Source: Escherichia coli O157:H7 | Lineage (GTDB): Bacteria > Pseudomonadota > Gammaproteobacteria > Enterobacterales > Enterobacteriaceae | NCBI RefSeq assembly: GCF_013167455.1 | Contig: NZ_CP038328.1 | Strand: one strand, 5' to 3' | DNA length: 64,000 bases | Shown here: one piece after another, positions 10,795-50,378 of the stretch | How the letters are laid out: each line of letters starts with the position of its first letter | Numbering within the stretch: position 1 is the first letter of the stretch | Translations under genes and position numbers: made by a program | Notes under the pieces: model-generated | The model's input: the letters and a program-made list of their open reading frames with translations, nothing else | Told to the model about the DNA's origin: nothing | Database searches by the model: none

Positions 10795-10808
10795 TAAGAA
10801 ATATCGCA
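10795..10808 (+). promoter_or_regulatory. Candidate RcsAB box upstream of the colanic acid operon
   Basis: TAAGAAATATCGCA resembles the RcsAB-box consensus (TaAGaatatTCctA) in the long AT-rich leader upstream of wza. Confidence 0.3.
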
Positions 10809-11074
10809 TGTGGAGACGCAATATTAAATATTGTCAACCTAAAGAAACTCCTAAAAACCATATTGAATGACACTTAATATAATTCTTAAAAATAGCCAAT
10901 TGCCGAATTGTTACCTTGCCTGCTATTCCGTTAGCTGTAACACTTCCTCCTGCATTATTGGAGAGCCAATATTCAATTACCATAATGTCACCTTATATTC
11001 GGAAGTTAATTTCCGCAATAACCCTTTCTCATCAACGATTGTATGCAGAGAGGGTTTGAAAAATTAAGCTAAAT

Positions 11075-11113
11075 CAGTGTATTGGTAGCTAAAAAGCCAG
11101 GGGCGGTAGCGTG
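11075..11113 (+). promoter_or_regulatory. JUMPstart element with ops site (RfaH antitermination) in the wza leader
   Basis: CAGTGTATTGGTAGCTAAAAAGCCAGGGGCGGTAGCGTG; ops core GGCGGTAGCGTG at 11102-11113. Confidence 0.85.
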
Positions 11114-15045: not shown

Positions 15046-15137
15046 CGAGGCCTGCATTCGCACCGCCCCGTAGGCCGGATAAGGCGCTCACGCCGCATCC
15101 GGCAAGCAAACCAGCTCATAAGCCGGGAGTACAACCT
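15046..15137. repeat. REP element between wzc and wcaA
   Basis: GCCGGATAAGGCGCTCACGCCGCATCCGGCA palindromic unit. Confidence 0.6.
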
Positions 15138-24017: not shown

Positions 24018-25454
24018 ATGGCGCAGTCGAAACTCTATCCAGTTGTGATGGCAGGTGGCTCCGGTAGCCGCTTATGGCCGCTTTCCCGCGTACTTTATCC
24101 CAAGCAGTTTTTATGCCTGAAAGGCGATCTCACCATGCTGCAAACCACCATCTGCCGCCTGAACGGCGTGGAGTGCGAAAGCCCTGTGGTGATTTGCAAT
24201 GAGCAGCACCGCTTTATTGTTGCGGAACAACTGCGTCAACTGAACAAACTCACTGAGAACATTATTCTCGAACCGGCAGGGCGTAACACAGCACCGGCCA
24301 TTGCGCTGGCGGCGCTGGCGGCAAAACGTCATAGCCCGGAGAACGACCCATTAATGCTGGTGCTGGCGGCGGATCATGTGATTGCCGATGAAGACGCATT
24401 CCGCGCCGCCGTGCGTAACGCTATGCCGTATGCCGAAGCGGGCAAGCTGGTGACCTTCGGCATTGTGCCGGATCTACCTGAAACCGGATATGGCTATATT
24501 CGTCGCGGTGAAGTGTCGGCGGGTGAGCAGGATACGGTGGCCTTTGAAGTGGCGCAGTTTGTCGAAAAACCAAATCTGGAAACCGCGCAGGCCTATGTGG
24601 CAAGCGGCGAATATTACTGGAACAGCGGTATGTTCCTGTTCCGTGCCGGACGCTATCTCGAAGAACTGAAAAAATATCGCCCGGATATTCTCGACGCCTG
24701 TGAAAAAGCGATGAGCGCCGTCGATCCGGATCTCGATTTTATTCGCGTGGATGAAGACGCGTTTCTGGCCTGCCCGGAAGAGTCGGTGGATTACGCGGTC
24801 ATGGAACGTACGGCAGATGCCGTTGTGGTGCCGATGGATGCGGGCTGGAGCGATGTCGGCTCCTGGTCCTCATTATGGGAGATCAGCGCCCACACCGCCG
24901 AGGGCAACGTTTGCCACGGCGATGTGATTAATCACAAAACTGAAAACAGCTATGTGTATGCCGAATCTGGCCTGGTCACCACCGTCGGGGTGAAAGATTT
25001 GGTGGTAGTGCAGACCAAAGATGCGGTGCTGATTGCCGACCGTAACGCGGTGCAGGATGTGAAAAAAGTGGTCGAGCAGATCAAAGCCGATGGTCGCCAT
25101 GAGCATCGGGTGCATCGCGAAGTCTATCGCCCGTGGGGCAAATATGACTCTATCGACGCGGGCGACCGCTACCAGGTGAAACGCATCACCGTGAAACCGG
25201 GCGAAGGCTTGTCGGTACAGATGCACCATCACCGCGCGGAACACTGGGTGGTTGTCGCGGGAACGGCAAAAGTCACCATTGACGGTGATATCAAACTGCT
25301 TGGTGAAAACGAGTCGATTTATATTCCGCTGGGGGCGACGCACTGCCTGGAAAACCCGGGGAAAATTCCGCTCGATTTAATTGAAGTGCGCTCCGGCTCT
25401 TATCTCGAAGAGGATGATGTGGTGCGCTTCGCGGATCGCTACGGACGGGTGTAA
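24018..25454 (+). CDS. cpsB: Mannose-1-phosphate guanylyltransferase (colanic acid copy)
   Basis: 478 aa [24 protein letters not shown]...; cupin-type C-terminal domain. Confidence 0.93.
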
Positions 25455-25598
<144 letters not shown>

Positions 25599-25646
25599 TT
25601 GGCCGTTTCGGTCAGGGCCAACTATTGCCTGAAAAAGGGTAACGAT

Positions 25647-27017
25647 ATGAAAAAATTAACCTGCTTTAAAGCCTATGATATTCGCGGGAAATTAGGCGAA
25701 GAACTGAATGAAGATATTGCCTGGCGCATTGGTCGTGCCTATGGCGAATTTCTCAAACCGAAAACCATTGTGTTAGGCGGTGATGCCCGTCTCACCAGCG
25801 AAACCTTAAAACTGGCGCTGGCAAAAGGTTTACAGGATGCGGGCGTTGACGTGCTGGATATTGGTATGTCCGGCACCGAAGAGATCTATTTCGCCACGTT
25901 CCATCTCGGCGTGGATGGCGGCATTGAAGTTACTGCCAGCCATAACCCGATGGATTACAACGGCATGAAACTGGTGCGCGAAGGGGCTCGCCCGATCAGC
26001 GGCGATACCGGACTGCGCGATGTCCAGCGTCTGGCAGAAGCCAACGACTTTCCTCCCGTTGATGAAACCAAACGCGGTCGCTATCAGCAAATCAATCTGC
26101 GTGACGCTTACGTTGATCACCTGTTCGGTTATATCAACGTCAAAAACCTTACGCCGCTCAAGCTGGTGATCAACTCCGGGAACGGCGCGGCGGGTCCGGT
26201 GGTGGACGCCATCGAAGCCCGCTTTAAAGCCCTCGGCGCACCGGTGGAATTGATCAAAGTGCACAACACGCCCGACGGCAATTTCCCCAACGGTATTCCT
26301 AACCCGCTGCTGCCGGAATGTCGCGACGACACCCGCAATGCGGTCATTAAACACGGCGCGGATATGGGCATTGCTTTTGATGGCGATTTTGACCGCTGTT
26401 TCCTGTTTGACGAAAAAGGGCAGTTTATCGAGGGCTACTACATTGTCGGTCTGCTGGCAGAAGCGTTCCTCGAAAAAAATCCCGGCGCGAAGATCATCCA
26501 CGATCCACGTCTCTCCTGGAATACCGTTGATGTGGTGACTGCCGCAGGCGGCACCCCGGTAATGTCGAAAACCGGACACGCCTTTATTAAAGAACGGATG
26601 CGCAAGGAAGACGCCATCTACGGTGGCGAAATGAGCGCCCACCATTACTTCCGTGATTTTGCTTACTGCGACAGCGGCATGATCCCGTGGCTGCTGGTCG
26701 CCGAACTGGTGTGCCTGAAAGGAAAGACGCTGGGCGAACTGGTGCGCGACCGGATGGCAGCGTTTCCGTCAAGCGGTGAGATCAACAGCAAACTGGCGCA
26801 ACCCGTTGAGGCGATTAACCGCGTGGAACAGCATTTTAGCCGTGAGGCGCTGGCGGTGGATCGCACCGATGGCATCAGCATGACCTTTGCCGACTGGCGC
26901 TTTAATCTGCGCTCCTCCAACACCGAACCGGTGGTGCGGTTGAATGTGGAATCACGCGGTGATGTGCCGCTGATGGAAGCGCGAACGCGAACTCTGCTGA
27001 CGTTGCTGAACGAGTAA
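25647..27017 (+). CDS. cpsG: Phosphomannomutase (colanic acid copy)
   Basis: [29 protein letters not shown]...; phosphohexomutase active site TASHNP. Confidence 0.93.
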
Positions 27018-29949: not shown

Positions 29950-30110
29950 GTTGTTTTCGGTTCCGACAACGGTTGCCGGGTGCAGCGTAAAACACCTTAT
30001 CCATCCTACGGTTCTGTGCTCGGGTCTTGTAGGCCTGATAAGACGCGCCAGCGTCGCATCAGGCAAAAAACGGCAACGAACACAACAAACACAGCCTCAC
30101 CTGGCATCAA
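29950..30110. repeat. REP/BIME cluster between wzxC and wcaK
   Basis: Repeated ...CCTTATCCATCCTACGG...GTAGGCCTGATAAGACGCGCCAGCGTCGCATCAGGC... units. Confidence 0.7.
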
Positions 30111-34185: not shown

Positions 34186-35181
34186 ATGAACGATAACGTT
34201 TTGCTCATAGGAGCTTCCGGATTCGTAGGAACCCGACTACTTGAAACGGCAATTGCTGACTTTAATATCAAGAACCTGGACAAACAGCAGAGCCACTTTT
34301 ATCCAGAAATCACACAGATTGGTGATGTTCGTGATCAACAGGCACTCGACCAGGCGTTAGCCGGTTTTGACACTGTTGTACTACTGGCAGCGGAACACCG
34401 CGATGACGTCAGCCCTACTTCTCTCTATTATGATGTCAACGTTCAGGGTACCCGCAATGTGCTGGCGGCCATGGAAAAAAATGGCGTTAAAAATATCATC
34501 TTTACCAGTTCCGTTGCTGTTTATGGTTTGAACAAACACAACCCTGACGAAAACCATCCACACGACCCTTTCAACCACTACGGCAAAAGCAAGTGGCAGG
34601 CGGAGGAAGTGCTGCGTGAATGGTATAACAAAGCACCAACAGAACGTTCATTAACTATCATCCGTCCTACCGTTATCTTCGGTGAACGCAACCGCGGTAA
34701 CGTCTATAACTTGCTGAAACAGATCGCTGGCGGCAAGTTTATGATGGTGGGCGCAGGGACTAACTATAAGTCCATGGCTTATGTTGGAAACATTGTTGAG
34801 TTTATCAAGTACAAACTGAAGAATGTTGCCGCAGGTTACGAGGTTTATAACTACGTTGATAAGCCAGACCTGAACATGAACCAGTTGGTTGCTGAAGTTG
34901 AACAAAGCCTGAACAAAAAGATCCCTTCTATGCACTTGCCTTACCCACTAGGAATGCTGGGTGGATATTGCTTTGATATCCTGAGCAAAATTACGGGCAA
35001 AAAATACGCTGTCAGCTCTGTGCGCGTGAAAAAATTCTGCGCAACAACACAGTTTGACGCAACGAAAGTGCATTCTTCAGGTTTTGTGGCACCGTATACG
35101 CTGTCGCAAGGTCTGGATCGAACTCTGCAGTATGAATTCGTCCATGCCAAAAAAGACGACATAACGTTTGTTTCTGAGTAA
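34186..35181 (+). CDS. gne: NAD-dependent sugar 4-epimerase (short-chain dehydrogenase fold), Gne-like
   Basis: 331 aa; N-terminal Rossmann GASGFVG; catalytic YGKSK; sits between wcaM and galF where K-12 has no gene; lower GC than its neighbours. Confidence 0.75.
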   Translation: MNDNVLLIGASGFVGTRLLETAIADFNIKNLDKQQSHFYPEITQIGDVRDQQALDQALAGFDTVVLLAAEHRDDVSPTSLYYDVNVQGTRNVLAAMEKNGVKNIIFTSSVAVYGLNKHNPDENHPHDPFNHYGKSKWQAEEVLREWYNKAPTERSLTIIRPTVIFGERNRGNVYNLLKQIAGGKFMMVGAGTNYKSMAYVGNIVEFIKYKLKNVAAGYEVYNYVDKPDLNMNQLVAEVEQSLNKKIPSMHLPYPLGMLGGYCFDILSKITGKKYAVSSVRVKKFCATTQFDATKVHSSGFVAPYTLSQGLDRTLQYEFVHAKKDDITFVSE

Positions 35182-35423
35182 TGCAGACGAGTCAGAGAAA
35201 AAAGGACCAGGTTGGACTACGATTATTCGGAAAGAGGTACTGATTAAATTATCAGTATGTGGATTTCCGAGTAATCCGAGTAACCCAGATGCTGATGGTG
35301 TGTAGTGTTATCGTAAGGTTTAATCAAAGTTATGCGGAACTAAGCTTTGGTATATAGCCATAACGTTTGGCTAACCTATGGCAATAATTTACGCACTATC
35401 AGCCACTTAGAGGTAGGAAAAGA

Positions 35424-36317
35424 ATGACGAATTTAAAAGCAGTTATACCGGTAGCAGGTCTTGGGATGCATATGTTGCCTGCCACTAAGGCGATTCCCAA
35501 AGAGATGCTACCGATCGTCGACAAGCCAATGATTCAGTACATTGTTGACGAGATTGTGGCTGCAGGGATCAAAGAAATCCTCCTGGTAACTCACGCGTCC
35601 AAGAACGCAGTCGAAAACCACTTCGACACCTCTTATGAATTAGAATCTCTCCTTGAACAGCGCGTGAAGCGTCAACTACTGGCGGAAGTACAATCTATCT
35701 GTCCGCCGGGCGTGACCATTATGAACGTGCGTCAGGGTGAACCTTTAGGTTTAGGCCACTCCATTTTATGTGCGCGACCTGCCATTGGTGACAATCCATT
35801 TGTCGTGGTGCTGCCAGACGTTGTGATCGACGACGCCAGCGCCGACCCGCTACGCTACAACCTTGCTGCCATGATTGCGCGCTTCAATGAAACGGGACGC
35901 AGCCAGGTGCTGGCAAAACGTATGCCGGGCGACCTCTCTGAATACTCCGTCATCCAGACCAAAGAACCGCTGGATCGTGAAGGCAAAGTCAGCCGCATTG
36001 TTGAATTTATCGAAAAGCCGGATCAGCCGCAGACGCTGGACTCAGACATCATGGCCGTTGGTCGATATGTGCTTTCTGCCGATATTTGGCCGGAACTGGA
36101 ACGTACTCAGCCTGGTGCATGGGGACGTATTCAGCTGACTGATGCCATTGCTGAGCTGGCAAAAAAACAATCCGTTGATGCAATGCTGATGACTGGCGAC
36201 AGTTACGACTGCGGTAAAAAAATGGGCTATATGCAGGCGTTTGTGAAGTATGGACTACGCAACTTGAAAGAAGGGGCGAAGTTCCGCAAAGGTATCGAGA
36301 AGCTGTTAAGCGAATAA
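35424..36317 (+). CDS. galF: UTP-glucose-1-phosphate uridylyltransferase-like regulatory subunit GalF
   Basis: 297 aa [43 protein letters not shown]... Confidence 0.93.
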
Positions 36318-36543
36318 TGAAAATCTGACCGAATGTAACGGTTGATAAGGAAATAATATCGGCAGTGAAAAACTATAGATCAATAAATATCACTGCTGTT
36401 GAGCTTTTATAATTAACTATGCTACCAATGAATAAATCGTGTGCAGATATGTATTTTTTGTTTGGTAGTCTTGTTTCTCCCTCTGAATAATAAGATAATA
36501 AACGCTTGGAGATGATTTTTTTAACATGGATTATCATTTCGTA

Positions 36544-36577
36544 CACTGGTAGCGATTAAGCCAGGGGCGGTAGCGTG
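36544..36577 (+). promoter_or_regulatory. JUMPstart/ops element of the O-antigen operon
   Basis: CACTGGTAGCGATTAAGCCAGGGGCGGTAGCGTG; ops core GGCGGTAGCGTG at 36566-36577, about 60 bp upstream of the first O-antigen gene. Confidence 0.85.
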
Positions 36578-36635: not shown

Positions 36636-37418
36636 ATGAACAAAGAAACCGTTTCAATAATTATGCCCGTTTACAATGGGGCCAAAACTATAATCTCATC
36701 AGTAGAATCAATTATACATCAATCTTATCAAGATTTTGTTTTGTATATCATTGACGATTGTAGCACCGATGATACATTTTCATTAATCAACAGTCGATAC
36801 AAAAACAATCAGAAAATAAGAATATTGCGTAACAAGACAAATTTAGGTGTTGCAGAAAGTCGAAATTATGGAATAGAAATGGCCACGGGGAAATATATTT
36901 CTTTTTGTGATGCGGATGATTTGTGGCACGAGAAAAAATTAGAGCGTCAAATCGAAGTGTTAAATAATGAATGTGTAGATGTGGTATGTTCTAATTATTA
37001 TGTTATAGATAACAAAAGAAATATTGTTGGCGAAGTTAATGCTCCTCATGTGATAAATTATAGAAAAATGCTCATGAAAAACTACATAGGGAATTTGACA
37101 GGAATCTATAATGCCAACAAATTGGGTAAGTTTTATCAAAAAAAGATTGGTCACGAGGATTATTTGATGTGGCTGGAAATAATTAATAAAACAAATGGTG
37201 CTATTTGTATTCAAGATAATCTGGCGTATTACATGCGTTCAAATAATTCACTATCGGGTAATAAAATTAAAGCTGCAAAATGGACATGGAGTATATATAG
37301 AGAACATTTACATTTGTCCTTTCCAAAAACATTATATTATTTTTTATTATATGCTTCAAATGGAGTCATGAAAAAAATAACACATTCACTATTAAGGAGA
37401 AAGGAGACTAAAAAGTGA
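36636..37418 (+). CDS. wbdN: O-antigen glycosyltransferase (GT2)
   Basis: 260 aa; GT2 signature (VSIIMPVYNG, DDCSTD, DADD); AT-rich codon usage; first gene after galF in the O157-type order. Confidence 0.8.
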   Translation: MNKETVSIIMPVYNGAKTIISSVESIIHQSYQDFVLYIIDDCSTDDTFSLINSRYKNNQKIRILRNKTNLGVAESRNYGIEMATGKYISFCDADDLWHEKKLERQIEVLNNECVDVVCSNYYVIDNKRNIVGEVNAPHVINYRKMLMKNYIGNLTGIYNANKLGKFYQKKIGHEDYLMWLEIINKTNGAICIQDNLAYYMRSNNSLSGNKIKAAKWTWSIYREHLHLSFPKTLYYFLLYASNGVMKKITHSLLRRKETKK

Positions 37419-38599
37419 AGTCAGCGGCTAAGTTGATTTTTTTATTCCTATTTACACTTTATAGTCTCCAGTTGTATGGGGTTATCATAGATGATCGTAT
37501 AACAAATTTTGATACAAAGGTATTAACTAGTATTATAATTATATTTCAGATTTTTTTTGTTTTATTATTTTATCTAACGATTATAAATGAAAGAAAACAG
37601 CAGAAAAAATTTATCGTGAACTGGGAGCTAAAGTTAATACTCGTTTTCCTTTTTGTGACTATAGAAATTGCTGCTGTAGTTTTATTTCTTAAAGAAGGTA
37701 TTCCTATATTTGATGATGATCCAGGGGGGGCTAAACTTAGAATAGCTGAAGGTAATGGACTTTACATTAGATATATTAAGTATTTTGGTAATATAGTTGT
37801 GTTTGCATTAATTATTCTTTATGATGAGCATAAATTCAAACAGAGGACCATCATATTTGTATATTTTACAACGATTGCTTTATTTGGTTATCGTTCTGAA
37901 TTGGTGTTGCTCATTCTTCAATATATATTGATTACCAATATCCTGTCAAAGGATAACCGTAATCCTAAAATAAAAAGAATAATAGGGTATTTTTTATTGG
38001 TAGGGGTTGTATGCTCGTTGTTTTATCTAAGTTTAGGACAAGACGGAGAACAAAATGACTCATATAATAATATGTTAAGGATAATTAATAGGTTAACAAT
38101 AGAGCAAGTTGAAAGTGTTCCATATGTTGTTTCTGAATCTATTAAGAACGATTTCTTTCCGACACCAGAGTTAGAAAAGGAATTAAAAGCAATAATAAAT
38201 AGAATACAGGGAATAAAGCATCAAGACTTATTTTATGGAGAACGGTTACATAAACAAGTATTTGGAGACATGGGAGCAAATTTTTTATCAGTTACTACGT
38301 ATGGAGCAGAACTGTTAGTTTTTTTTGGTTTTCTCTGTGTATTCATTATCCCTTTAGGGATATATATACCTTTTTATCTTTTAAAGAGAATGAAAAAAAC
38401 CCATAGCTCGATAAATTGCGCATTCTATTCATATATCATTATGATTTTATTGCAATACTTAGTGGCTGGGAATGCATCGGCCTTCTTTTTTGGTCCTTTT
38501 CTCTCCGTATTGATAATGTGTACTCCTCTGATCTTATTGCATGATACGTTAAAGAGATTATCACGAAATGAAAATATCAGTTATAACTGTGACTTATAA
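37415..38599 (+). CDS. wzy: O-antigen polymerase Wzy
   Basis: 394 aa, very hydrophobic polytopic protein, AT-rich, GTG start overlapping wbdN. Confidence 0.75.
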   Translation: MKSAAKLIFLFLFTLYSLQLYGVIIDDRITNFDTKVLTSIIIIFQIFFVLLFYLTIINERKQQKKFIVNWELKLILVFLFVTIEIAAVVLFLKEGIPIFDDDPGGAKLRIAEGNGLYIRYIKYFGNIVVFALIILYDEHKFKQRTIIFVYFTTIALFGYRSELVLLILQYILITNILSKDNRNPKIKRIIGYFLLVGVVCSLFYLSLGQDGEQNDSYNNMLRIINRLTIEQVESVPYVVSESIKNDFFPTPELEKELKAIINRIQGIKHQDLFYGERLHKQVFGDMGANFLSVTTYGAELLVFFGFLCVFIIPLGIYIPFYLLKRMKKTHSSINCAFYSYIIMILLQYLVAGNASAFFFGPFLSVLIMCTPLILLHDTLKRLSRNENISYNCDL

Positions 38600-39314
38600 T
38601 AATGCTGAAGGGTTAGAAAAAACTTTAAGTAGTTTATCAATTTTAAAAATAAAACCTTTTGAGATTATTATAGTTGATGGCGGCTCTACAGATGGAACGA
38701 ATCGTGTCATTAGTAGATTTACTAGTATGAATATTACACATGTTTATGAAAAAGATGAAGGGATATATGATGCGATGAATAAGGGCCGAATGTTGGCCAA
38801 AGGCGACTTAATACATTATTTAAACGCCGGCGATAGCGTAATTGGAGATATATATAAAAATATCAAAGAGCCATGTTTGATTAAAGTTGGCCTTTTCGAA
38901 AATGATAAACTTCTGGGATTTTCTTCTATAACCCATTCAAATACAGGGTATTGTCATCAAGGGGTGATTTTCCCAAAGAATCATTCAGAATATGATCTAA
39001 GGTATAAAATATGTGCTGATTATAAGCTTATTCAAGAGGTGTTTCCTGAAGGGTTAAGATCTCTATCTTTGATTACTTCGGGTTATGTAAAATATGATAT
39101 GGGGGGAGTATCTTCAAAAAAAAGAATTTTAAGAGATAAAGAGCTTGCCAAAATTATGTTTGAAAAAAATAAAAAAAACCTTATTAAGTTTATTCCAATT
39201 TCAATAATCAAAATTTTATTCCCTGAACGTTTAAGAAGAGTATTGCGGAAAATGCAATATATTTGTCTAACTTTATTCTTCATGAAGAATAGTTCACCAT
39301 ATGATAATGAATAA
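38568..39314 (+). CDS. wbdO: O-antigen glycosyltransferase (GT2)
   Basis: 248 aa MKISVITVTYNNAEGLEKTL...IIVDGGSTDGT; GT2 motifs. Confidence 0.78.
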   Translation: MKISVITVTYNNAEGLEKTLSSLSILKIKPFEIIIVDGGSTDGTNRVISRFTSMNITHVYEKDEGIYDAMNKGRMLAKGDLIHYLNAGDSVIGDIYKNIKEPCLIKVGLFENDKLLGFSSITHSNTGYCHQGVIFPKNHSEYDLRYKICADYKLIQEVFPEGLRSLSLITSGYVKYDMGGVSSKKRILRDKELAKIMFEKNKKNLIKFIPISIIKILFPERLRRVLRKMQYICLTLFFMKNSSPYDNE

Positions 39315-40692
39315 AATCAAAAAAATACTTAAATTTTGCACTTTAAAAAAATATGATACATCAAGTGCTTTAGGTAGAGAACAGGAAAGGTACAGGATTA
39401 TATCCTTGTCTGTTATTTCAAGTTTGATTAGTAAAATACTCTCACTACTTTCTCTTATATTAACTGTAAGTTTAACTTTACCTTATTTAGGACAAGAGAG
39501 ATTTGGTGTATGGATGACTATTACCAGTCTTGGTGCTGCTCTGACATTTTTGGACTTAGGTATAGGAAATGCATTAACAAACAGGATCGCACATTCATTT
39601 GCGTGTGGCAAAAATTTAAAGATGAGTCGGCAAATTAGTGGTGGGCTCACTTTGCTGGCTGGATTATCGTTTGTCATAACTGCAATATGCTATATTACTT
39701 CTGGCATGATTGATTGGCAACTAGTAATAAAAGGTATAAACGAGAATGTGTATGCAGAGTTACAACACTCAATTAAAGTCTTTGTAATCATATTTGGACT
39801 TGGAATTTATTCAAATGGTGTGCAAAAAGTTTATATGGGAATACAAAAAGCCTATATAAGTAATATTGTTAATGCCATATTTATATTGTTATCTATTATT
39901 ACTCTAGTAATATCGTCGAAACTACATGCGGGACTACCAGTTTTAATTGTCAGCACTCTTGGTATTCAATACATATCGGGAATCTATTTAACAATTAATC
40001 TTATTATAAAGCGATTAATAAAGTTTACAAAAGTTAACATACATGCTAAAAGAGAAGCTCCATATTTGATATTAAACGGTTTTTTCTTTTTTATTTTACA
40101 GTTAGGCACTCTGGCAACATGGAGTGGTGATAACTTTATAATATCTATAACATTGGGTGTTACTTATGTTGCTGTTTTTAGCATTACACAGAGATTATTT
40201 CAAATATCTACGGTCCCTCTTACGATTTATAACATCCCGTTATGGGCTGCTTATGCAGATGCTCATGCACGCAATGATACTCAATTTATAAAAAAGACGC
40301 TCAGAACATCATTGAAAATAGTGGGTATTTCATCATTCTTATTGGCCTTCATATTAGTAGTGTTCGGTAGTGAAGTCGTTAATATTTGGACAGAAGGAAA
40401 GATTCAGGTACCTCGAACATTCATAATAGCTTATGCTTTATGGTCTGTTATTGATGCTTTTTCGAATACATTTGCAAGCTTTTTAAATGGTTTGAACATA
40501 GTTAAACAACAAATGCTTGCTGTTGTAACATTGATATTGATCGCAATTCCAGCAAAATACATCATAGTTAGCCATTTTGGGTTAACTGTTATGTTGTACT
40601 GCTTCATTTTTATATATATTGTAAATTACTTTATATGGTATAAATGTAGTTTTAAAAAACATATCGATAGACAGTTAAATATAAGAGGATGA
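39301..40692 (+). CDS. wzx: O-antigen flippase Wzx
   Basis: 463 aa polytopic membrane protein; position. Confidence 0.78.
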   Translation: MIMNKIKKILKFCTLKKYDTSSALGREQERYRIISLSVISSLISKILSLLSLILTVSLTLPYLGQERFGVWMTITSLGAALTFLDLGIGNALTNRIAHSFACGKNLKMSRQISGGLTLLAGLSFVITAICYITSGMIDWQLVIKGINENVYAELQHSIKVFVIIFGLGIYSNGVQKVYMGIQKAYISNIVNAIFILLSIITLVISSKLHAGLPVLIVSTLGIQYISGIYLTINLIIKRLIKFTKVNIHAKREAPYLILNGFFFFILQLGTLATWSGDNFIISITLGVTYVAVFSITQRLFQISTVPLTIYNIPLWAAYADAHARNDTQFIKKTLRTSLKIVGISSFLLAFILVVFGSEVVNIWTEGKIQVPRTFIIAYALWSVIDAFSNTFASFLNGLNIVKQQMLAVVTLILIAIPAKYIIVSHFGLTVMLYCFIFIYIVNYFIWYKCSFKKHIDRQLNIRG

Positions 40693-40694
40693 AA

Positions 40695-41789
40695 ATGAAA
40701 TATATACCAGTTTACCAACCGTCATTGACAGGAAAAGAAAAAGAATATGTAAATGAATGTCTGGACTCAACGTGGATTTCATCAAAAGGAAACTATATTC
40801 AGAAGTTTGAAAATAAATTTGCGGAACAAAACCATGTGCAATATGCAACTACTGTAAGTAATGGAACGGTTGCTCTTCATTTAGCTTTGTTAGCGTTAGG
40901 TATATCGGAAGGAGATGAAGTTATTGTTCCAACACTGACATATATAGCATCAGTTAATGCTATAAAATACACAGGAGCCACCCCCATTTTCGTTGATTCA
41001 GATAATGAAACTTGGCAAATGTCTGTTAGTGACATAGAACAAAAAATCACTAATAAAACTAAAGCTATTATGTGTGTCCATTTATACGGACATCCATGTG
41101 ATATGGAACAAATTGTAGAACTGGCCAAAAGTAGAAATTTGTTTGTAATTGAAGATTGCGCTGAAGCCTTTGGTTCTAAATATAAAGGTAAATATGTGGG
41201 AACATTTGGAGATATTTCTACTTTTAGCTTTTTTGGAAATAAAACTATTACTACAGGTGAAGGTGGAATGGTTGTCACGAATGACAAAACACTTTATGAC
41301 CGTTGTTTACATTTTAAAGGCCAAGGATTAGCTGTACATAGGCAATATTGGCATGACGTTATAGGCTACAATTATAGGATGACAAATATCTGCGCTGCTA
41401 TAGGATTAGCCCAGTTAGAACAAGCTGATGATTTTATATCACGAAAACGTGAAATTGCTGATATTTATAAAAAAAATATCAACAGTCTTGTACAAGTCCA
41501 CAAGGAAAGTAAAGATGTTTTTCACACTTATTGGATGGTCTCAATTCTAACTAGGACCGCAGAGGAAAGAGAGGAATTAAGGAATCACCTTGCAGATAAA
41601 CTCATCGAAACAAGGCCAGTTTTTTACCCTGTCCACACGATGCCAATGTACTCGGAAAAATATCAAAAGCACCCTATAGCTGAGGATCTTGGTTGGCGTG
41701 GAATTAATTTACCTAGTTTCCCCAGCCTATCGAATGAGCAAGTTATTTATATTTGTGAATCTATTAACGAATTTTATAGTGATAAATAG
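40695..41789 (+). CDS. per: GDP-perosamine synthase (PLP-dependent DegT/DnrJ/EryC1-family aminotransferase)
   Basis: MKYIPVYQPSLTGKEKEYVNECLDSTWISSKGNYIQKFEN...; aminotransferase fold; the classical O157 rfbE marker position. Confidence 0.88.
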   Translation: MKYIPVYQPSLTGKEKEYVNECLDSTWISSKGNYIQKFENKFAEQNHVQYATTVSNGTVALHLALLALGISEGDEVIVPTLTYIASVNAIKYTGATPIFVDSDNETWQMSVSDIEQKITNKTKAIMCVHLYGHPCDMEQIVELAKSRNLFVIEDCAEAFGSKYKGKYVGTFGDISTFSFFGNKTITTGEGGMVVTNDKTLYDRCLHFKGQGLAVHRQYWHDVIGYNYRMTNICAAIGLAQLEQADDFISRKREIADIYKKNINSLVQVHKESKDVFHTYWMVSILTRTAEEREELRNHLADKLIETRPVFYPVHTMPMYSEKYQKHPIAEDLGWRGINLPSFPSLSNEQVIYICESINEFYSDK

Positions 41790-41813
41790 CCTAAAATATT
41801 GTAAAGGTCATTC

Positions 41814-43028
41814 ATGAAAATTGCGTTGAATTCAGATGGATTTTACGAGTGGGGCGGTGGAATTGATTTTATTAAATATATTCTGTCAATATTAGAAACG
41901 AAACCAGAAATATGTATCGATATTCTTTTACCGAGAAATGATATACATTCTCTTATAAGAGAAAAAGCATTTCCTTTTAAAAGTATATTAAAAGCAATTT
42001 TAAAGAGGGAAAGGCCTCGATGGATTTCATTAAATAGATTTAATGAGCAATACTATAGAGATGCCTTTACACAAAATAATATAGAGACGAATCTTACCTT
42101 TATTAAAAGTAAGAGCTCTGCCTTTTATTCATATTTTGATAGTAGCGATTGTGATGTTATTCTTCCTTGCATGCGTGTTCCTTCGGGAAATTTGAATAAA
42201 AAAGCATGGATTGGTTATATTTATGACTTTCAACACTGTTACTATCCTTCATTTTTTAGTAAGCGAGAAATAGATCAAAGGAATGTGTTTTTTAAATTGA
42301 TGCTCAATTGCGCTAACAATATTATTGTTAATGCACATTCAGTTATTACCGATGCAAATAAATATGTTGGGAATTATTCTGCAAAACTACATTCTCTTCC
42401 ATTTAGTCCATGCCCTCAATTAAAATGGTTCGCTGATTACTCTGGTAATATTGCCAAATATAATATTGACAAGGATTATTTTATAATTTGCAATCAATTT
42501 TGGAAACATAAAGATCATGCAACTGCTTTTAGGGCATTTAAAATTTATACTGAATATAATCCTGATGTTTATTTAGTATGCACGGGAGCTACTCAAGATT
42601 ATCGATTCCCTGGATATTTTAATGAATTGATGGTTTTGGCAAAAAAGCTCGGAATTGAATCGAAAATTAAGATATTAGGGCATATACCTAAACTTGAACA
42701 AATTGAATTAATCAAAAATTGCATTGCTGTAATACAACCAACCTTATTTGAAGGCGGGCCTGGAGGGGGGGTAACATTTGACGCTATTGCATTAGGGAAA
42801 AAAGTTATACTATCTGACATAGATGTCAATAAAGAAGTTAATTGCGGTGATGTATATTTCTTTCAGGCAAAAAACCATTATTCATTAAATGACGCGATGG
42901 TAAAAGCTGATGAATCTAAAATTTTTTATGAACCTACAACTCTGATAGAATTGGGTCTCAAAAGACGCAATGCGTGTGCAGATTTTCTTTTAGATGTTGT
43001 GAAACAAGAAATTGAATCCCGATCTTAA
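41814..43028 (+). CDS. wbdP: O-antigen glycosyltransferase (GT4)
   Basis: 404 aa; GT4-like C-terminal domain; position. Confidence 0.75.
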
Positions 43029-43047
43029 TATATTCAAGAGGTATATA

Positions 43048-44166
43048 ATGACTAAAGTCGCTCTTATTACAGGTGTAACTGGACAAGATGGATCTTATCT
43101 AGCTGAGTTTTTGCTTGATAAAGGGTATGAAGTTCATGGTATCAAACGCCGAGCCTCATCTTTTAATACAGAACGCATAGACCATATTTATCAAGATCCA
43201 CATGGTTCTAACCCAAATTTTCACTTGCACTATGGAGATCTGACTGATTCATCTAACCTCACTAGAATTCTAAAGGAGGTACAGCCAGATGAAGTATATA
43301 ATTTAGCTGCTATGAGTCACGTAGCAGTTTCTTTTGAGTCTCCAGAATATACAGCCGATGTCGATGCAATTGGTACATTACGTTTACTGGAAGCAATTCG
43401 CTTTTTAGGATTGGAAAACAAAACGCGTTTCTATCAAGCTTCAACCTCAGAATTATATGGACTTGTTCAGGAAATCCCTCAAAAAGAATCCACCCCTTTT
43501 TATCCTCGTTCCCCTTATGCAGTTGCAAAACTTTACGCATATTGGATCACGGTAAATTATCGAGAGTCATATGGTATTTATGCATGTAATGGTATATTGT
43601 TCAATCATGAATCTCCACGCCGTGGAGAAACGTTTGTAACAAGGAAAATTACTCGAGGACTTGCAAATATTGCACAAGGCTTGGAATCATGTTTGTATTT
43701 AGGGAATATGGATTCGTTACGAGATTGGGGACATGCAAAAGATTATGTTAGAATGCAATGGTTGATGTTACAACAGGAGCAACCCGAAGATTTTGTGATT
43801 GCAACAGGAGTCCAATACTCAGTCCGTCAGTTTGTCGAAATGGCAGCAGCACAACTTGGTATTAAGATGAGCTTTGTTGGTAAAGGAATCGAAGAAAAAG
43901 GCATTGTAGATTCGGTTGAAGGACAGGATGCTCCAGGTGTGAAACCAGGTGATGTCATTGTTGCTGTTGATCCTCGTTATTTCCGACCAGCTGAAGTTGA
44001 TACTTTGCTTGGAGATCCGAGCAAAGCTAATCTCAAACTTGGTTGGAGACCAGAAATTACTCTTGCTGAAATGATTTCTGAAATGGTTGCCAAAGATCTT
44101 GAAGCCGCTAAAAAACATTCTCTTTTAAAATCGCATGGTTTTTCTGTAAGCTTAGCTCTGGAATGA
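43048..44166 (+). CDS. gmd: GDP-mannose 4,6-dehydratase (O-antigen copy)
   Basis: [50 protein letters not shown]...; protein highly similar to the colanic acid Gmd, but the DNA is AT-rich and diverged. Confidence 0.93.
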
Positions 44167-45134
44167 TGATGAATAAGCAACGTATTTTTATTGCTGGTCA
44201 CCAAGGAATGGTTGGATCAGCTATTACCCGACGCCTCAAACAACGTGATGATGTTGAGTTGGTTTTACGTACTCGGGATGAATTGAACTTGTTGGATAGT
44301 AGCGCTGTTTTGGATTTTTTTTCTTCACAGAAAATCGACCAGGTTTATTTGGCAGCAGCAAAAGTCGGAGGTATTTTAGCTAACAGTTCTTATCCTGCCG
44401 ATTTTATATATGAGAATATAATGATAGAGGCGAATGTCATTCATGCTGCCCACAAAAATAATGTAAATAAACTGCTTTTCCTCGGTTCGTCGTGTATTTA
44501 TCCTAAGTTAGCACACCAACCGATTATGGAAGACGAATTATTACAAGGGAAACTTGAGCCAACAAATGAACCTTATGCTATCGCAAAAATTGCAGGTATT
44601 AAATTATGTGAATCTTATAACCGTCAGTTTGGGCGTGATTACCGTTCAGTAATGCCAACCAATCTTTATGGTCCAAATGACAATTTTCATCCAAGTAATT
44701 CTCATGTGATTCCGGCGCTTTTGCGCCGCTTTCATGATGCTGTGGAAAACAATTCTCCGAATGTTGTTGTTTGGGGAAGTGGTACTCCAAAGCGTGAATT
44801 CTTACATGTAGATGATATGGCTTCTGCAAGCATTTATGTCATGGAGATGCCATACGATATATGGCAAAAAAATACTAAAGTAATGTTGTCTCATATCAAT
44901 ATTGGAACAGGTATTGACTGCACGATTTGTGAGCTTGCGGAAACAATAGCAAAAGTTGTAGGTTATAAAGGGCATATTACGTTCGATACAACAAAGCCCG
45001 ATGGAGCCCCTCGAAAACTACTTGATGTAACGCTTCTTCATCAACTAGGTTGGAATCATAAAATTACCCTTCACAAGGGTCTTGAAAATACATACAACTG
45101 GTTTCTTGAAAACCAACTTCAATATCGGGGGTAA
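44163..45134 (+). CDS. fcl: GDP-L-fucose synthase-like reductase (O-antigen copy)
   Basis: 323 aa [46 protein letters not shown]... Confidence 0.9.
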
Positions 45135-45136
45135 TA

Positions 45137-45646
45137 ATGTTTTTACATTCCCAAGACTTTGCCACAATTGTAAGGTCTACTCCTCTTATTTCTATAGATT
45201 TGATTGTGGAAAACGAGTTTGGCGAAATTTTGCTAGGAAAACGAATCAACCGCCCGGCACAGGGCTATTGGTTCGTTCCTGGTGGTAGGGTGTTGAAAGA
45301 TGAAAAATTGCAGACAGCCTTTGAACGATTGACAGAAATTGAACTAGGAATTCGTTTGCCTCTCTCTGTGGGTAAGTTTTATGGTATCTGGCAGCACTTC
45401 TACGAAGACAATAGTATGGGGGGAGACTTTTCAACGCATTATATAGTTATAGCATTCCTTCTTAAATTACAACCAAACATTTTGAAATTACCGAAGTCAC
45501 AACATAATGCTTATTGCTGGCTATCGCGAGCAAAGCTGATAAATGATGACGATGTGCATTATAATTGTCGCGCATATTTTAACAATAAAACAAATGATGC
45601 GATTGGCTTAGATAATAAGGATATAATATGTCTGATGCGCCAATAA
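45137..45646 (+). CDS. wbdQ: GDP-mannose mannosyl hydrolase (Nudix; O-antigen copy)
   Basis: 169 aa [50 protein letters not shown]... Confidence 0.88.
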
Positions 45647-47076
45647 TTGCTGTAGTTATGGCCGGTGGTACAGGCAGTCGTCTTTGGCCACTTTCTCGTG
45701 AACTATATCCAAAGCAGTTTTTACAACTCTCTGGTGATAACACCTTGTTACAAACGACTTTGCTACGACTTTCAGGCCTATCATGTCAAAAACCATTAGT
45801 GATAACAAATGAACAGCATCGCTTTGTTGTGGCTGAACAGTTAAGGGAAATAAATAAATTAAATGGTAATATTATTCTAGAACCATGCGGGCGAAATACT
45901 GCACCAGCAATAGCGATATCTGCGTTTCATGCGTTAAAACGTAATCCTCAGGAAGATCCATTGCTTCTAGTTCTTGCGGCAGACCACGTTATAGCTAAAG
46001 AAAGTGTTTTCTGTGATGCTATTAAAAATGCAACTCCCATCGCTAATCAAGGTAAAATTGTAACGTTTGGAATTATACCAGAATATGCTGAAACTGGTTA
46101 TGGGTATATTGAGAGAGGTGAACTATCTGTACCGCTTCAAGGGCATGAAAATACTGGTTTTTATTATGTAAATAAGTTTGTCGAAAAGCCTAATCGTGAA
46201 ACCGCAGAATTGTATATGACTTCTGGTAATCACTATTGGAATAGTGGAATATTCATGTTTAAGGCATCTGTTTATCTTGAGGAATTGAGAAAATTTAGAC
46301 CTGACATTTACAATGTTTGTGAACAGGTTGCCTCATCCTCATACATTGATCTAGATTTTATTCGATTATCAAAAGAACAATTTCAAGATTGTCCTGCTGA
46401 ATCTATTGATTTTGCTGTAATGGAAAAAACAGAAAAATGTGTTGTATGCCCTGTTGATATTGGTTGGAGTGACGTTGGATCTTGGCAATCGTTATGGGAC
46501 ATTAGTCTAAAATCGAAAACAGGAGATGTATGTAAAGGTGATATATTAACCTATGATACTAAGAATAATTATATCTACTCTGAGTCAGCGTTGGTAGCCG
46601 CCATTGGAATTGAAGATATGGTTATCGTGCAAACTAAAGATGCCGTTCTTGTGTCTAAAAAGAGTGATGTACAGCATGTAAAAAAAATAGTCGAAATGCT
46701 TAAATTGCAGCAACGTACAGAGTATATTAGTCATCGTGAAGTTTTCCGACCATGGGGAAAATTTGATTCGATTGACCAAGGTGAGCGATACAAAGTCAAG
46801 AAAATTATTGTGAAACCTGGTGAGGGGCTTTCTTTAAGGATGCATCACCATCGTTCTGAACATTGGATCGTGCTTTCTGGTACAGCAAAAGTAACCCTTG
46901 GCGATAAAACTAAACTAGTCACCGCAAATGAATCGATATACATTCCCCTTGGCGCAGCGTATAGTCTTGAGAATCCGGGCATAATCCCTCTTAATCTTAT
47001 TGAAGTCAGTTCAGGGGATTATTTGGGAGAGGATGATATTATAAGACAGAAAGAACGTTACAAACATGAAGATTAA
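45628..47076 (+). CDS. manC: Mannose-1-phosphate guanylyltransferase (O-antigen copy)
   Basis: 482 aa [24 protein letters not shown]...; AT-rich DNA unlike cpsB. Confidence 0.92.
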
Positions 47077-47079
47077 CAT

Positions 47080-48450
47080 ATGAAATCTTTAACCTGCTTT
47101 AAAGCCTATGATATTCGCGGGAAATTAGGCGAAGAACTGAATGAAGATATTGCCTGGCGCATTGGGCGTGCCTATGGCGAATTTCTCAAACCGAAAACCA
47201 TTGTTTTAGGCGGTGATGTCCGCCTCACCAGCGAAGCGTTAAAACTGGCGCTTGCGAAAGGTTTACAGGATGCGGGCGTCGATGTGCTGGATATCGGTAT
47301 GTCCGGCACCGAAGAGATCTATTTCGCCACGTTCCATCTCGGAGTGGATGGCGGCATCGAAGTTACCGCCAGCCATAACCCGATGGATTACAACGGCATG
47401 AAGCTGGTGCGCGAAGGGGCTCGCCCGATCAGCGGTGATACCGGACTGCGCGATGTCCAGCGTCTGGCAGAAGCCAATGACTTCCCTCCTGTCGATGAAA
47501 CCAAACGTGGTCGCTATCAGCAAATCAATCTGCGTGACGCTTACGTTGATCACCTGTTCGGTTATATCAACGTCAAAAACCTCACGCCGCTCAAGCTGGT
47601 GATCAACTCCGGGAACGGCGCAGCGGGTCCGGTGGTGGACGCCATTGAAGCCCGATTTAAAGCCCTCGGCGCACCGGTGGAATTAATCAAAGTACACAAC
47701 ACGCCGGACGGCAATTTCCCCAACGGTATTCCTAACCCGCTGCTGCCGGAATGCCGCGACGACACCCGTAATGCGGTCATCAAACACGGCGCGGATATGG
47801 GCATTGCCTTTGATGGCGATTTTGACCGCTGTTTCCTGTTTGACGAAAAAGGGCAGTTTATCGAGGGCTACTACATTGTCGGCCTGCTGGCAGAAGCGTT
47901 CCTCGAAAAAAATCCCGGCGCGAAGATCATCCACGATCCACGTCTCTCCTGGAACACCGTTGATGTGGTGACTGCCGCAGGCGGCACCCCGGTAATGTCG
48001 AAAACCGGACACGCCTTTATTAAAGAACGTATGCGCAAGGAAGACGCCATCTACGGTGGCGAAATGAGCGCTCACCATTACTTCCGTGATTTCGCTTACT
48101 GCGACAGCGGCATGATCCCGTGGCTGCTGGTCGCCGAACTGGTGTGCCTGAAAGGAAAAACGCTGGGCGAAATGGTGCGCGACCGGATGGCGGCGTTTCC
48201 GGCAAGCGGTGAGATCAACAGCAAACTGGCGCAACCCGTTGAGGCAATTAATCGCGTGGAACAGCATTTTAGCCGCGAGGCGCTGGCGGTGGATCGCACC
48301 GATGGCATCAGCATGACCTTTGCCGACTGGCGCTTTAACCTGCGCTCCTCCAACACCGAACCGGTGGTGCGGTTGAATGTGGAATCACGCGGTGATGTAA
48401 AGCTAATGGAAAAGAAAACTAAAGCTCTTCTTAAATTGCTAAGTGAGTGA
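47080..48450 (+). CDS. manB: Phosphomannomutase (O-antigen copy; near-identical to cpsG at DNA level except the extreme 5' and 3' ends)
   Basis: 456 aa [29 protein letters not shown]...; high-GC body matching cpsG; the last ~20 codons are AT-rich and divergent (...[19 protein letters not shown]). Confidence 0.93.
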
Positions 48451-48689
48451 TTATTTACATTAATCATTAAGCGTATTTAAGATTATATTAAAGTAATGTT
48501 ATTGCGGTATATGATGAATATGTGGGCTTTTTTATGTATAACGACTATACCGCAACTTTATCTAGGAAAAGATTAATAGAAATAAAGTTTTGTACTGACC
48601 AATTTGCATTTCACGTCACGATTGAGACGTTCCTTTGCTTAAGACATTTTTTCATCGCTTATGTAATAACAAATGTGCCTTATATAAAA

Positions 48690-49650
48690 AGGAGAACAAA
48701 ATGGAACTTAAAATAATTGAGACAATAGATTTTTATTATCCCTGTTTACGATATTATAGCCAAAGTTGTATCCTGCATCAGTCCTGCAATATTTCACGAG
48801 TGCTTTGTTAACTGAATACATGTCTGCCATTTTCCAGATGATAACGACGTCATCGCAATTGATGGTAAAACACTTCGGCACACTTATGACAAGAGTCGTC
48901 GCAGAGGAGTGGTTCATGTCATTAGTGCGTTTCAGCAATGCACAGTCTGGTCCTCGGATAGATCAAGACGGATGAGAAACCTAATGCGTTCACAGTTATT
49001 CATGAACTTTCTAAAATGATGGGTATTAAAGGAAAAATAATCATAACTGATGCGATGGCTTGCCAGAAAGATATTGCAGAGAAGATATAAAAACAGAGAT
49101 GTGATTATTTATTCGCTGTAAAAGGAAATAAGAGTCGGCTTAATAGAGTCTTTGAGGAGATATTTACGCTGAAAGAATTAAATAATCCAAAACATGACAG
49201 TTACGCAATTAGTGAAAAGAGGCACGGCAGAGACGATGTCCGTCTTCATATTGTTTGAGATGCTCCTGATGAGCTTATTGATTTCACGTTTGAATGGAAA
49301 GGGCTGCAGAATTTATGAATGGCAGTCCACTTTCTCTCAATAATAGCAGAGCAAAAGAAAGAATCCGAAATGACGATCAAATATTATATTAGATCTGCTG
49401 CTTTAACCGCAGAGAAGTTCGCCACAGTAAATCGAAATCACTGGCGCATGGAGAATAAGTTGCACAGTAGCCTGATGTGGTAATGAATGAAATCGACTAT
49501 AATATAAGAAGGCGAGTTGCATTCGAATGATTTTCTAGAATGCGGCACATCGCTATTAATATCTGACAATGATAATGTATTCAAGGCAGGATTATCATGT
49601 AAGATGCGAAAAGCAGTCATGGACAGAAACTTCCTAGCGTCAGGCATTGC
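48690..49650 (+). mobile_element. Degenerate H-repeat (ISAs1-family) transposase remnant
   Basis: Frame-hopping translation gives MELK..., [155 protein letters not shown]-repeat-protein blocks interrupted by multiple stops and frameshifts. Confidence 0.8.
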
Positions 49651-49712
49651 AGCGTGCGGGCTTTCATAATCTTGCATTGGTTTTGATAAGATATTTCTTT
49701 GGAGATGGGAAA

Positions 49713-50378
49713 ATGAATTTGTATGGTATTTTTGGTGCTGGAAGTTATGGTAGAGAAACAATACCCATTCTAAATCAACAAATAAAGCAAGAATGTGGTT
49801 CTGACTATGCTCTGGTTTTTGTGGATGATGTTTTGGCAGGAAAGAAAGTTAATGGTTTTGAAGTGCTTTCAACCAACTGCTTTCTAAAAGCCCCTTATTT
49901 AAAAAAGTATTTTAATGTTGCTATTGCTAATGATAAGATACGACAGAGAGTGTCTGAGTCAATATTATTACACGGGGTTGAACCAATAACTATAAAACAT
50001 CCAAATAGCGTTGTTTATGATCATACTATGATAGGTAGTGGCGCTATTATTTCTCCCTTTGTTACAATATCTACTAATACTCATATAGGGAGGTTTTTTC
50101 ATGCAAACATATACTCATACGTTGCACATGATTGTCAAATAGGAGACTATGTTACATTTGCTCCTGGGGCTAAATGTAATGGATATGTTGTTATTGAAGA
50201 CAATGCATATATAGGCTCGGGTGCAGTAATTAAGCAGGGTGTTCCTAATCGCCCACTTATTATTGGCGCGGGAGCCATTATAGGTATGGGGGCTGTTGTC
50301 ACTAAAAGTGTTCCTGCCGGTATAACTGTGTGCGGAAATCCAGCAAGAGAAATGAAAAGATCGCCAACATCTATTTAA
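49713..50378 (+). CDS. wbdR: Hexapeptide-repeat acetyltransferase, probable GDP-perosamine N-acetyltransferase
   Basis: MNLYGIFGAGSYGRETIPIL...; C-terminal left-handed beta-helix repeats; last gene before gnd as in the O157 cluster. Confidence 0.8.
   Translation: MNLYGIFGAGSYGRETIPILNQQIKQECGSDYALVFVDDVLAGKKVNGFEVLSTNCFLKAPYLKKYFNVAIANDKIRQRVSESILLHGVEPITIKHPNSVVYDHTMIGSGAIISPFVTISTNTHIGRFFHANIYSYVAHDCQIGDYVTFAPGAKCNGYVVIEDNAYIGSGAVIKQGVPNRPLIIGAGAIIGMGAVVTKSVPAGITVCGNPAREMKRSPTSI

Follow-up and report, generated by a model that had tools for sequence, protein, structure and literature searches.

The surface-polysaccharide region of Escherichia coli O157:H7 raises the question of whether two closely similar elements, one in the leader of the colanic acid gene wza and one upstream of the first O-antigen gene, are genuine JUMPstart/ops signals for the recruitment of RfaH, and whether they mark the limits of the transcription units that they precede. 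The window analysed here is the whole stretch of 64,000 nucleotides, whose two sites are 99.9-100% identical to O157:H7-type chromosomes (megablast against complete E. coli genomes). Its gene map was drawn from the open reading frames of the window itself and from the annotated genome of a strain that is 99.988% identical over 50 kb; it gives the order yegH, wza–wcaM, gnu (formerly "gne", the name used in the sequence-only reading), galF, the O157 O-antigen cluster, gnd-ugd-wzzB and his. Upstream of wza are located yegD, alkA, a frameshifted dgcE, udk, dcd, asmA, a RelE/ParE pair and yegH on the minus strand. The colanic acid operon wza-wzb-wzc-wcaA to wcaM (11292-34028, + strand) lies 3' of the first ops site and the O157 O-antigen operon (36636-50378, + strand) 3' of the second, while gnu (34186-35181, + strand) and galF (35424-36317, + strand) are situated between the two sites. 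The O-antigen operon comprises a GT2 glycosyltransferase gene (wbdN), wzy, wbdO, wzx, per, wbdP, gmd, fcl and wbdQ, followed by manC, manB, an ISAs1 remnant and perB/wbdR; beyond the cluster come gnd, ugd and wzzB and then the his operon on the minus strand. The G+C content of the O-antigen cluster is 31-40%, compared with about 52% in its flanks.

Several further features of the gene map deserve mention in their own right. The diguanylate cyclase gene dgcE (yegE; 1479-4797, minus strand) is split into two overlapping reading frames (1479-4328 and 4264-4797), in agreement with its annotation as a "frameshifted" pseudogene in the reference O157-type strain, and a RelE/ParE toxin gene together with an HTH antitoxin gene is inserted between asmA and yegH (8357-8975, minus strand). 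Each polysaccharide cluster has its own gmd-fcl-gmm-manC-manB set. The colanic acid gene cpsG (25640-26978) and the O157 manB gene (47074-48411) share 96% identity over 1.34 kb. They point in the same direction at a distance of about 21 kb, which makes them a potential recombination substrate between the clusters. Between cpsB and cpsG in the colanic acid operon, directly 5' of the phosphomannomutase gene, lies a full-length algC RNA motif (Rfam RF02929; 25593-25642, + strand; 78.2 bits versus a gathering score of 33.8). In the O157 paralogue manB (47080) both the gap and the motif are missing. The degenerate remnant of an ISAs1-family transposase (H-repeat; about 48740-49670, + strand) lies between manB and perB/wbdR within the O-antigen operon, so that transcription must traverse about 1.2 kb of untranslated DNA before it reaches the last gene.

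The element in the wza leader is a 39-bp JUMPstart at positions 11075-11113 of the + strand (CAGTGTATTGGTAGCTAAAAAGCCAGGGGCGGTAGCGTG), which matches the Rfam family RF01707 over exactly this interval with 57.3 bits (E 1.6e-10; gathering score 35). Its counterpart in the O157 O-antigen leader extends from 36539 to 36577 on the same strand (TCGTACACTGGTAGCGATTAAGCCAGGGGCGGTAGCGTG); the corresponding RF01707 match (36540-36577) reaches 39.9 bits (E 1.7e-5) and thus exceeds the gathering score by 4.9 bits. A relaxed search (E<=5) retrieved no further JUMPstart in the window. The sequence-only reading had placed two nearly identical elements in these leaders, and the family matches together with a shared 20-mer (see below) establish that the pair is real; its coordinates were exact for the first element, and for the second 36539/36540-36577 is a better description than 36544-36577. 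Each element contains two GGTAGC direct repeats spaced 21 nt apart (11084-11110 on the + strand, with starts at 11084 and 11105, and again with starts at 36548 and 36569), the only two pairs with this spacing on either strand of the window, and carries the ops 8-mer GGCGGTAG towards its 3' end. The 5' CAGYG box reads CAGTG in the wza copy and is degenerate (TCGTAC) in the O157 O-antigen copy, which explains the lower score of the latter: its 5' half is degenerate and its ops part is perfect. JUMPstart was reportedly recognised upstream of the O-antigen (rfb) clusters of E. coli and Salmonella by Hobbs and Reeves in 1994, and the primary papers on the two leaders are reportedly those of Stout in 1996 for K-12 colanic acid and of Wang and Reeves in 1998.

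The last 12 nt of each element, at its 3' end, form the ops signal. The motif GGCGGTAGNNTG matches the 64 kb exactly twice. Both matches (11102-11113 and 36566-36577) lie on the + strand with the sequence GGCGGTAGCGTG; shuffled sequences contain 0.04 matches on average, and two matches were reached in 1 of 100 shuffles. Both copies are intergenic, the first in the yegH-wza gap with its last base 178 nt 5' of the wza ATG (11292) and the second in the gap between galF and the first O-antigen glycosyltransferase gene with its last base 58 nt 5' of the ATG (36636). Since the elements share the strand of the genes downstream, ops is located on the non-template strand, which is the strand needed for the recruitment of RfaH (PMC9765446), and both copies agree there with the 12-nt consensus GGCGGTAGnnTG. 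Mutagenesis has assigned G4-G8 to the recruitment of RfaH and T11 and G12 to pausing (PMC5995543), and G4, G5, T6, A7, G8, T11 and G12 are all present in both copies. The identity of the two sites extends to the exact 20-mer AAGCCAGGGGCGGTAGCGTG (11094-11113 and 36558-36577), which among the matches listed is the sole repeated 18-mer family besides REP elements and the paralogous manB genes; an upstream TGGTAGC is likewise common to both, and the sequences that flank the two sites bear no relation to each other.

The search for chance copies, by which the sequence-only reading had proposed to check its own claim, yielded the two leader sites only and no surplus of copies inside coding regions. 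The 8-mer GGCGGTAG occurs three times versus 1.2 expected, which is within chance. Its third, bare occurrence at 10515 reads GGCGGTAGTTTT, does not have TG at positions 11-12, is located within yegH, a gene of the opposite strand, and was rejected. If up to two mismatches are allowed, there are seven extra sites versus about 4.5 expected, a number that does not exceed chance, all of them in coding regions; those on the + strand of the operons are altered at positions that matter, namely at 13668 (T6A, G12C), 38829 (G5A, G12A) and 45281 (C3T, C9G), and they were discarded as well. Ops-like sites in coding regions have been found not to bind RfaH (PMC9765446).

The comparison with other E. coli genomes documents the conservation of both elements. 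Of 5426 complete E. coli genomes, 4817 (89%) contain the 71-nt region around the wza element with at least 90% identity. The wza leader of strain CFT073 bears an identical 39-bp element within a 600-nt leader that is 99% identical, and the O-antigen leader of the same strain carries the same ops 12-mer as the window. At the O-antigen locus, where the 39-bp JUMPstart is a recognised upstream landmark of all E. coli clusters (PMC4732683), an RF01707 match was found at the same place downstream of galF in all eight other loci investigated (K-12 O16, CFT073 O6, an O2:K2:H1 strain, an STEC strain and four further strains; 52.9-62.4 bits). The O157 copy shares with the other serotypes the invariant core, the ops 12-mer and the site downstream of galF. 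It differs from them in having TCGTAC instead of CAGTG, with one base fewer against the model, in its lower score (39.9 bits versus about 53-62 bits) and in its distance from the galF stop codon (222 nt versus about 258 nt). The ops sites of other members of the RfaH regulon, i.e. rfa (waaQ), kps region 3, hly and F tra, conform to the same consensus and are likewise located on the non-template strand of a leader. At the second site the spacing of 58 nt lies within the 40-67 nt that have been published for wzx, kps and rfa; by comparison with the O-antigen, kps and rfa leaders, the 178 nt between ops and the wza start codon are long.

In the alignment of the serotype loci (the O157 copy and seven others) the core CTGGTAGC..AAGCCAGGGGCGGTAGCGTG is invariant, and directly after G12 the sequences diverge and can no longer be aligned. 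The O157 leader has diverged 5' of the element too, including a deletion of about 25 nt. The invariance of the core between two diverging flanks argues that the element is held by selection and not by mere linkage to galF. The opposite reading, namely that the O-antigen copy has been kept passively as part of the conserved galF-side flank of a recombination hotspot and that the wza copy is a relic or a product of chance, can appeal to the first 50 nt or so past galF, which are also conserved across serotypes. It is hardly credible, however, given that the core outlasted divergence and deletion on either side in O157, that the same 20-mer recurs on the correct strand of an unrelated leader 25 kb away, and that the RfaH ChIP signal of CFT073 begins at these sites (PMC9765446). 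Covariance-model matches, strand and leader position, and conservation across serotypes uphold the identification of the elements as JUMPstart/ops.

The first glycosyltransferase gene of the O-antigen locus in strain MLI108K3 is annotated to start at position 917 of that locus, 5' of the JUMPstart (961-999), and this start has probably been mis-called. At position 36438 the window has a single C where strain CDC#03-98 has an A, outside the JUMPstart and 33 nt 5' of the -35-like hexamer of the putative O-antigen promoter (see below). The other O157 genomes among those listed also show a one-base difference over this intergenic region (99.7%).

A second interpretation is that the element, modelled by Rfam as "JUMPstart RNA", acts at least partly as a hairpin of the nascent leader RNA, beyond a DNA signal alone. 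A 5-bp stem (YUGGU/GCCAG) is built into the model and also appears when the O-antigen copy is folded to minimum energy. Pairing would be maintained at the first position of this stem, where the wza copy has U-G and the others have C-G. Against this stand fold energies that equal those of shuffled sequences (z -0.03 and +0.14), the missing stem in the minimum-energy fold of the wza copy, and the finding of no compensatory change among 10 sequences. According to published mutagenesis and structures, it is the non-template DNA of the 12-nt ops that is recognised, and RfaH-dependent reporters were also built around ops; an action of the element as an RNA hairpin, even in part, is very improbable. 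Folding of the ops DNA itself gave a mini-hairpin of -0.9 kcal/mol, no better than shuffles; this fold is uninformative, because it is marginal and its pairing is unlike that of the published C3:G8 hairpin.

The DNA signal favoured here has been described in the literature on RfaH. RfaH reads the central bases G4-G8 as a small hairpin of the non-template strand, and ops is at the same time a consensus pause (PMC5995543). ChIP-seq in CFT073 revealed RfaH signals that start at the leader ops sites of wzx (O-antigen), hly, kps and rfa and, only in Δhns ΔstpA cells and hence with promoter firing, also at wza-wcaM; the signals disappear in a ΔrfaH mutant (PMC9765446). Transcription of the colanic acid genes has been described with JUMPstart-RfaH antitermination (PMC9976346), genes downstream of wzc need RfaH (PMC3673037), and rfaH is encoded in O157:H7 (PMC1431545), outside the window studied here. 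We conclude that both elements are almost certainly bona fide JUMPstart/ops signals and that RfaH loaded in the two leaders would support the expression of the two long operons. Since the wza locus of CFT073 recruited RfaH only without hns and stpA, the wza ops site may be used seldom under ordinary growth.

For the strain investigated here, pausing, RfaH loading and suppression of polarity would then be expected as follows, by analogy with the published systems. RNA polymerase starting from an upstream promoter, presumably Rcs-activated and H-NS-silenced in the case of wza and of a conserved sigma-70-like type in the case of the O-antigen operon, would pause at U11 of ops. The exposed non-template DNA would form the small hairpin that is read by RfaH, which would open and refold, displace NusG and ride with the polymerase through the operon. 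On the way, RfaH would suppress pausing, Rho-dependent termination and H-NS roadblocks, and it would aid the recruitment of ribosomes to first genes that have no Shine-Dalgarno sequence. In this way, the distal genes of both the 23-kb wca operon and the 14-kb AT-rich O157 operon would be expressed in full.

Several properties of the two operons fit this rationale. AT-rich, H-NS-bound DNA, Rho-sensitive untranslated stretches and likewise starts without a canonical ribosome-binding site have been linked to RfaH action in previous publications (PMC9765446, PMC5995543). No Shine-Dalgarno sequence is recognisable before wza or before the first O-antigen gene; galF and gnd each have one. The wca operon harbors REP-type hairpins in the wzc-wcaA gap (15073-15117, + strand), the cpsB-cpsG gap (25433-25588) and the wzxC-wcaK gap (30027-30065), and all three are very stable (z -2.5 to -5.1) and situated in untranslated gaps, which makes them candidate internal polarity sites. 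Together, the AT-rich cluster, the missing Shine-Dalgarno sequences and the REP hairpins would be consistent with a requirement for RfaH. A further REP-type palindrome is found at 1423-1469; these elements were recognised from the 18-mers that they share and from naRNA4 matches below the threshold.

The promoters that would deliver RNA polymerase to the two ops sites were sought in the leaders. Consensus scans for promoters and terminators in both leaders and the inter-operon regions returned counts at or below shuffle expectation, and any promoter named here is therefore no more than a candidate. A pattern match on the + strand 5' of the wza leader (10795-10808, TAAGAAATATCGCA) is a candidate for an RcsAB box, an assignment based on its position and on the RcsAB-box consensus; such patterns are not enriched over chance (10 found versus 6.0 expected). 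A TATAAT -10-like hexamer with a poor -35 (10878-10883, + strand), read from the sequence, is the candidate for an Rcs-dependent wza promoter, and the promoter scan offers an alternative at 10959-10986. The candidate region is conserved in CFT073, and the wza promoter is probably Rcs-activated. At the O-antigen locus, a promoter-like block (TTGTTT-17 nt-GATAAT; 36471-36499, + strand) is located about 60-70 nt 5' of ops. Its general form TTGTTT-17 nt-GAYAAT (alignment columns about 160-207) is conserved in eight serotype loci amid diverging surroundings and likely represents the O-antigen promoter.

The one claim of the sequence-only reading that has to be corrected concerns the limits of the transcription units, which the two sites were supposed to delimit. 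An ops site is the boarding point of RfaH inside a 5' leader; the promoters are located upstream of it, and it does not define the 3' ends of the units. The related placement of "gne" and galF outside the O-antigen ops unit is correct insofar as both genes lie 5' of the O-antigen ops, and the function of gnu and its position outside the O-antigen cluster have been documented (PMC3682973), but both genes are still 3' of the wza ops. According to the CFT073 study, RfaH-modified complexes run past predicted unit ends, at signals for termination that it describes as unknown (PMC9765446).

This arrangement raises the possibility that the O-antigen ops unit is not delimited by its promoter, but is entered by polymerases that started at wza, gnu or galF, resulting in partial co-transcription of gnu-galF with the O-antigen genes and possibly with wca too. 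The terminator scan found no intrinsic terminator on the + strand from wcaM to the O-antigen ops (36566), and the galF terminator, strong in K-12, has decayed in O157. What is left of it is the degraded remnant of a hairpin (36360-36398, + strand), recognised by folding of window positions 36352-36416 in comparison with positions 735-810 of the K-12 locus: its energy is -11.6 kcal/mol (z -1.9) versus -33.6 kcal/mol (z -9.0) in K-12, an 11-nt deletion took the inner stem, and the remaining 9-bp stem is separated by 6 nt from the U-tract. Given this degradation, polymerase arriving from gnu or galF could gain RfaH at 36566, and the reported passage of RfaH-modified complexes beyond predicted unit ends (PMC9765446) points in the same direction. 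Conversely, the serotype-conserved promoter-like block lies directly 5' of the O-antigen JUMPstart, and a 10/12 match to the sigma-70 consensus lies directly 3' of wcaM; we regard read-through of this kind as unlikely on balance. Its specific version, in which the O-antigen operon is entered by polymerases that acquired RfaH at the wza ops during Rcs stress, or by those from gnu and galF that take it up at the second ops, is decidedly doubtful. If it were true, the induction of colanic acid, the supply of the Gnu epimerase and the expression of the O157 O-antigen would be coupled in a read-through unit of about 39 kb. A long and stable hairpin with no U-tract after it was also observed in the gnu-galF intergenic region (35215-35285, + strand); the 149-nt segment folds with -39.6 kcal/mol (z -3.1), and 0 of 200 shuffles were as good.

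The reading that we retain is that of two leader-borne RfaH loading signals, each serving the operon downstream of it. Both signals are textbook elements and have already been described; the original observation is confirmed and its interpretation is supported with one correction, that of the unit boundaries. Nothing new is learned on RfaH, JUMPstart or O157. The result is of use for annotating leaders and transcription units as well as the upstream limit of the O-antigen cluster, and it means that both long surface-polysaccharide operons of the window bear the standard signals for the loading of RfaH.
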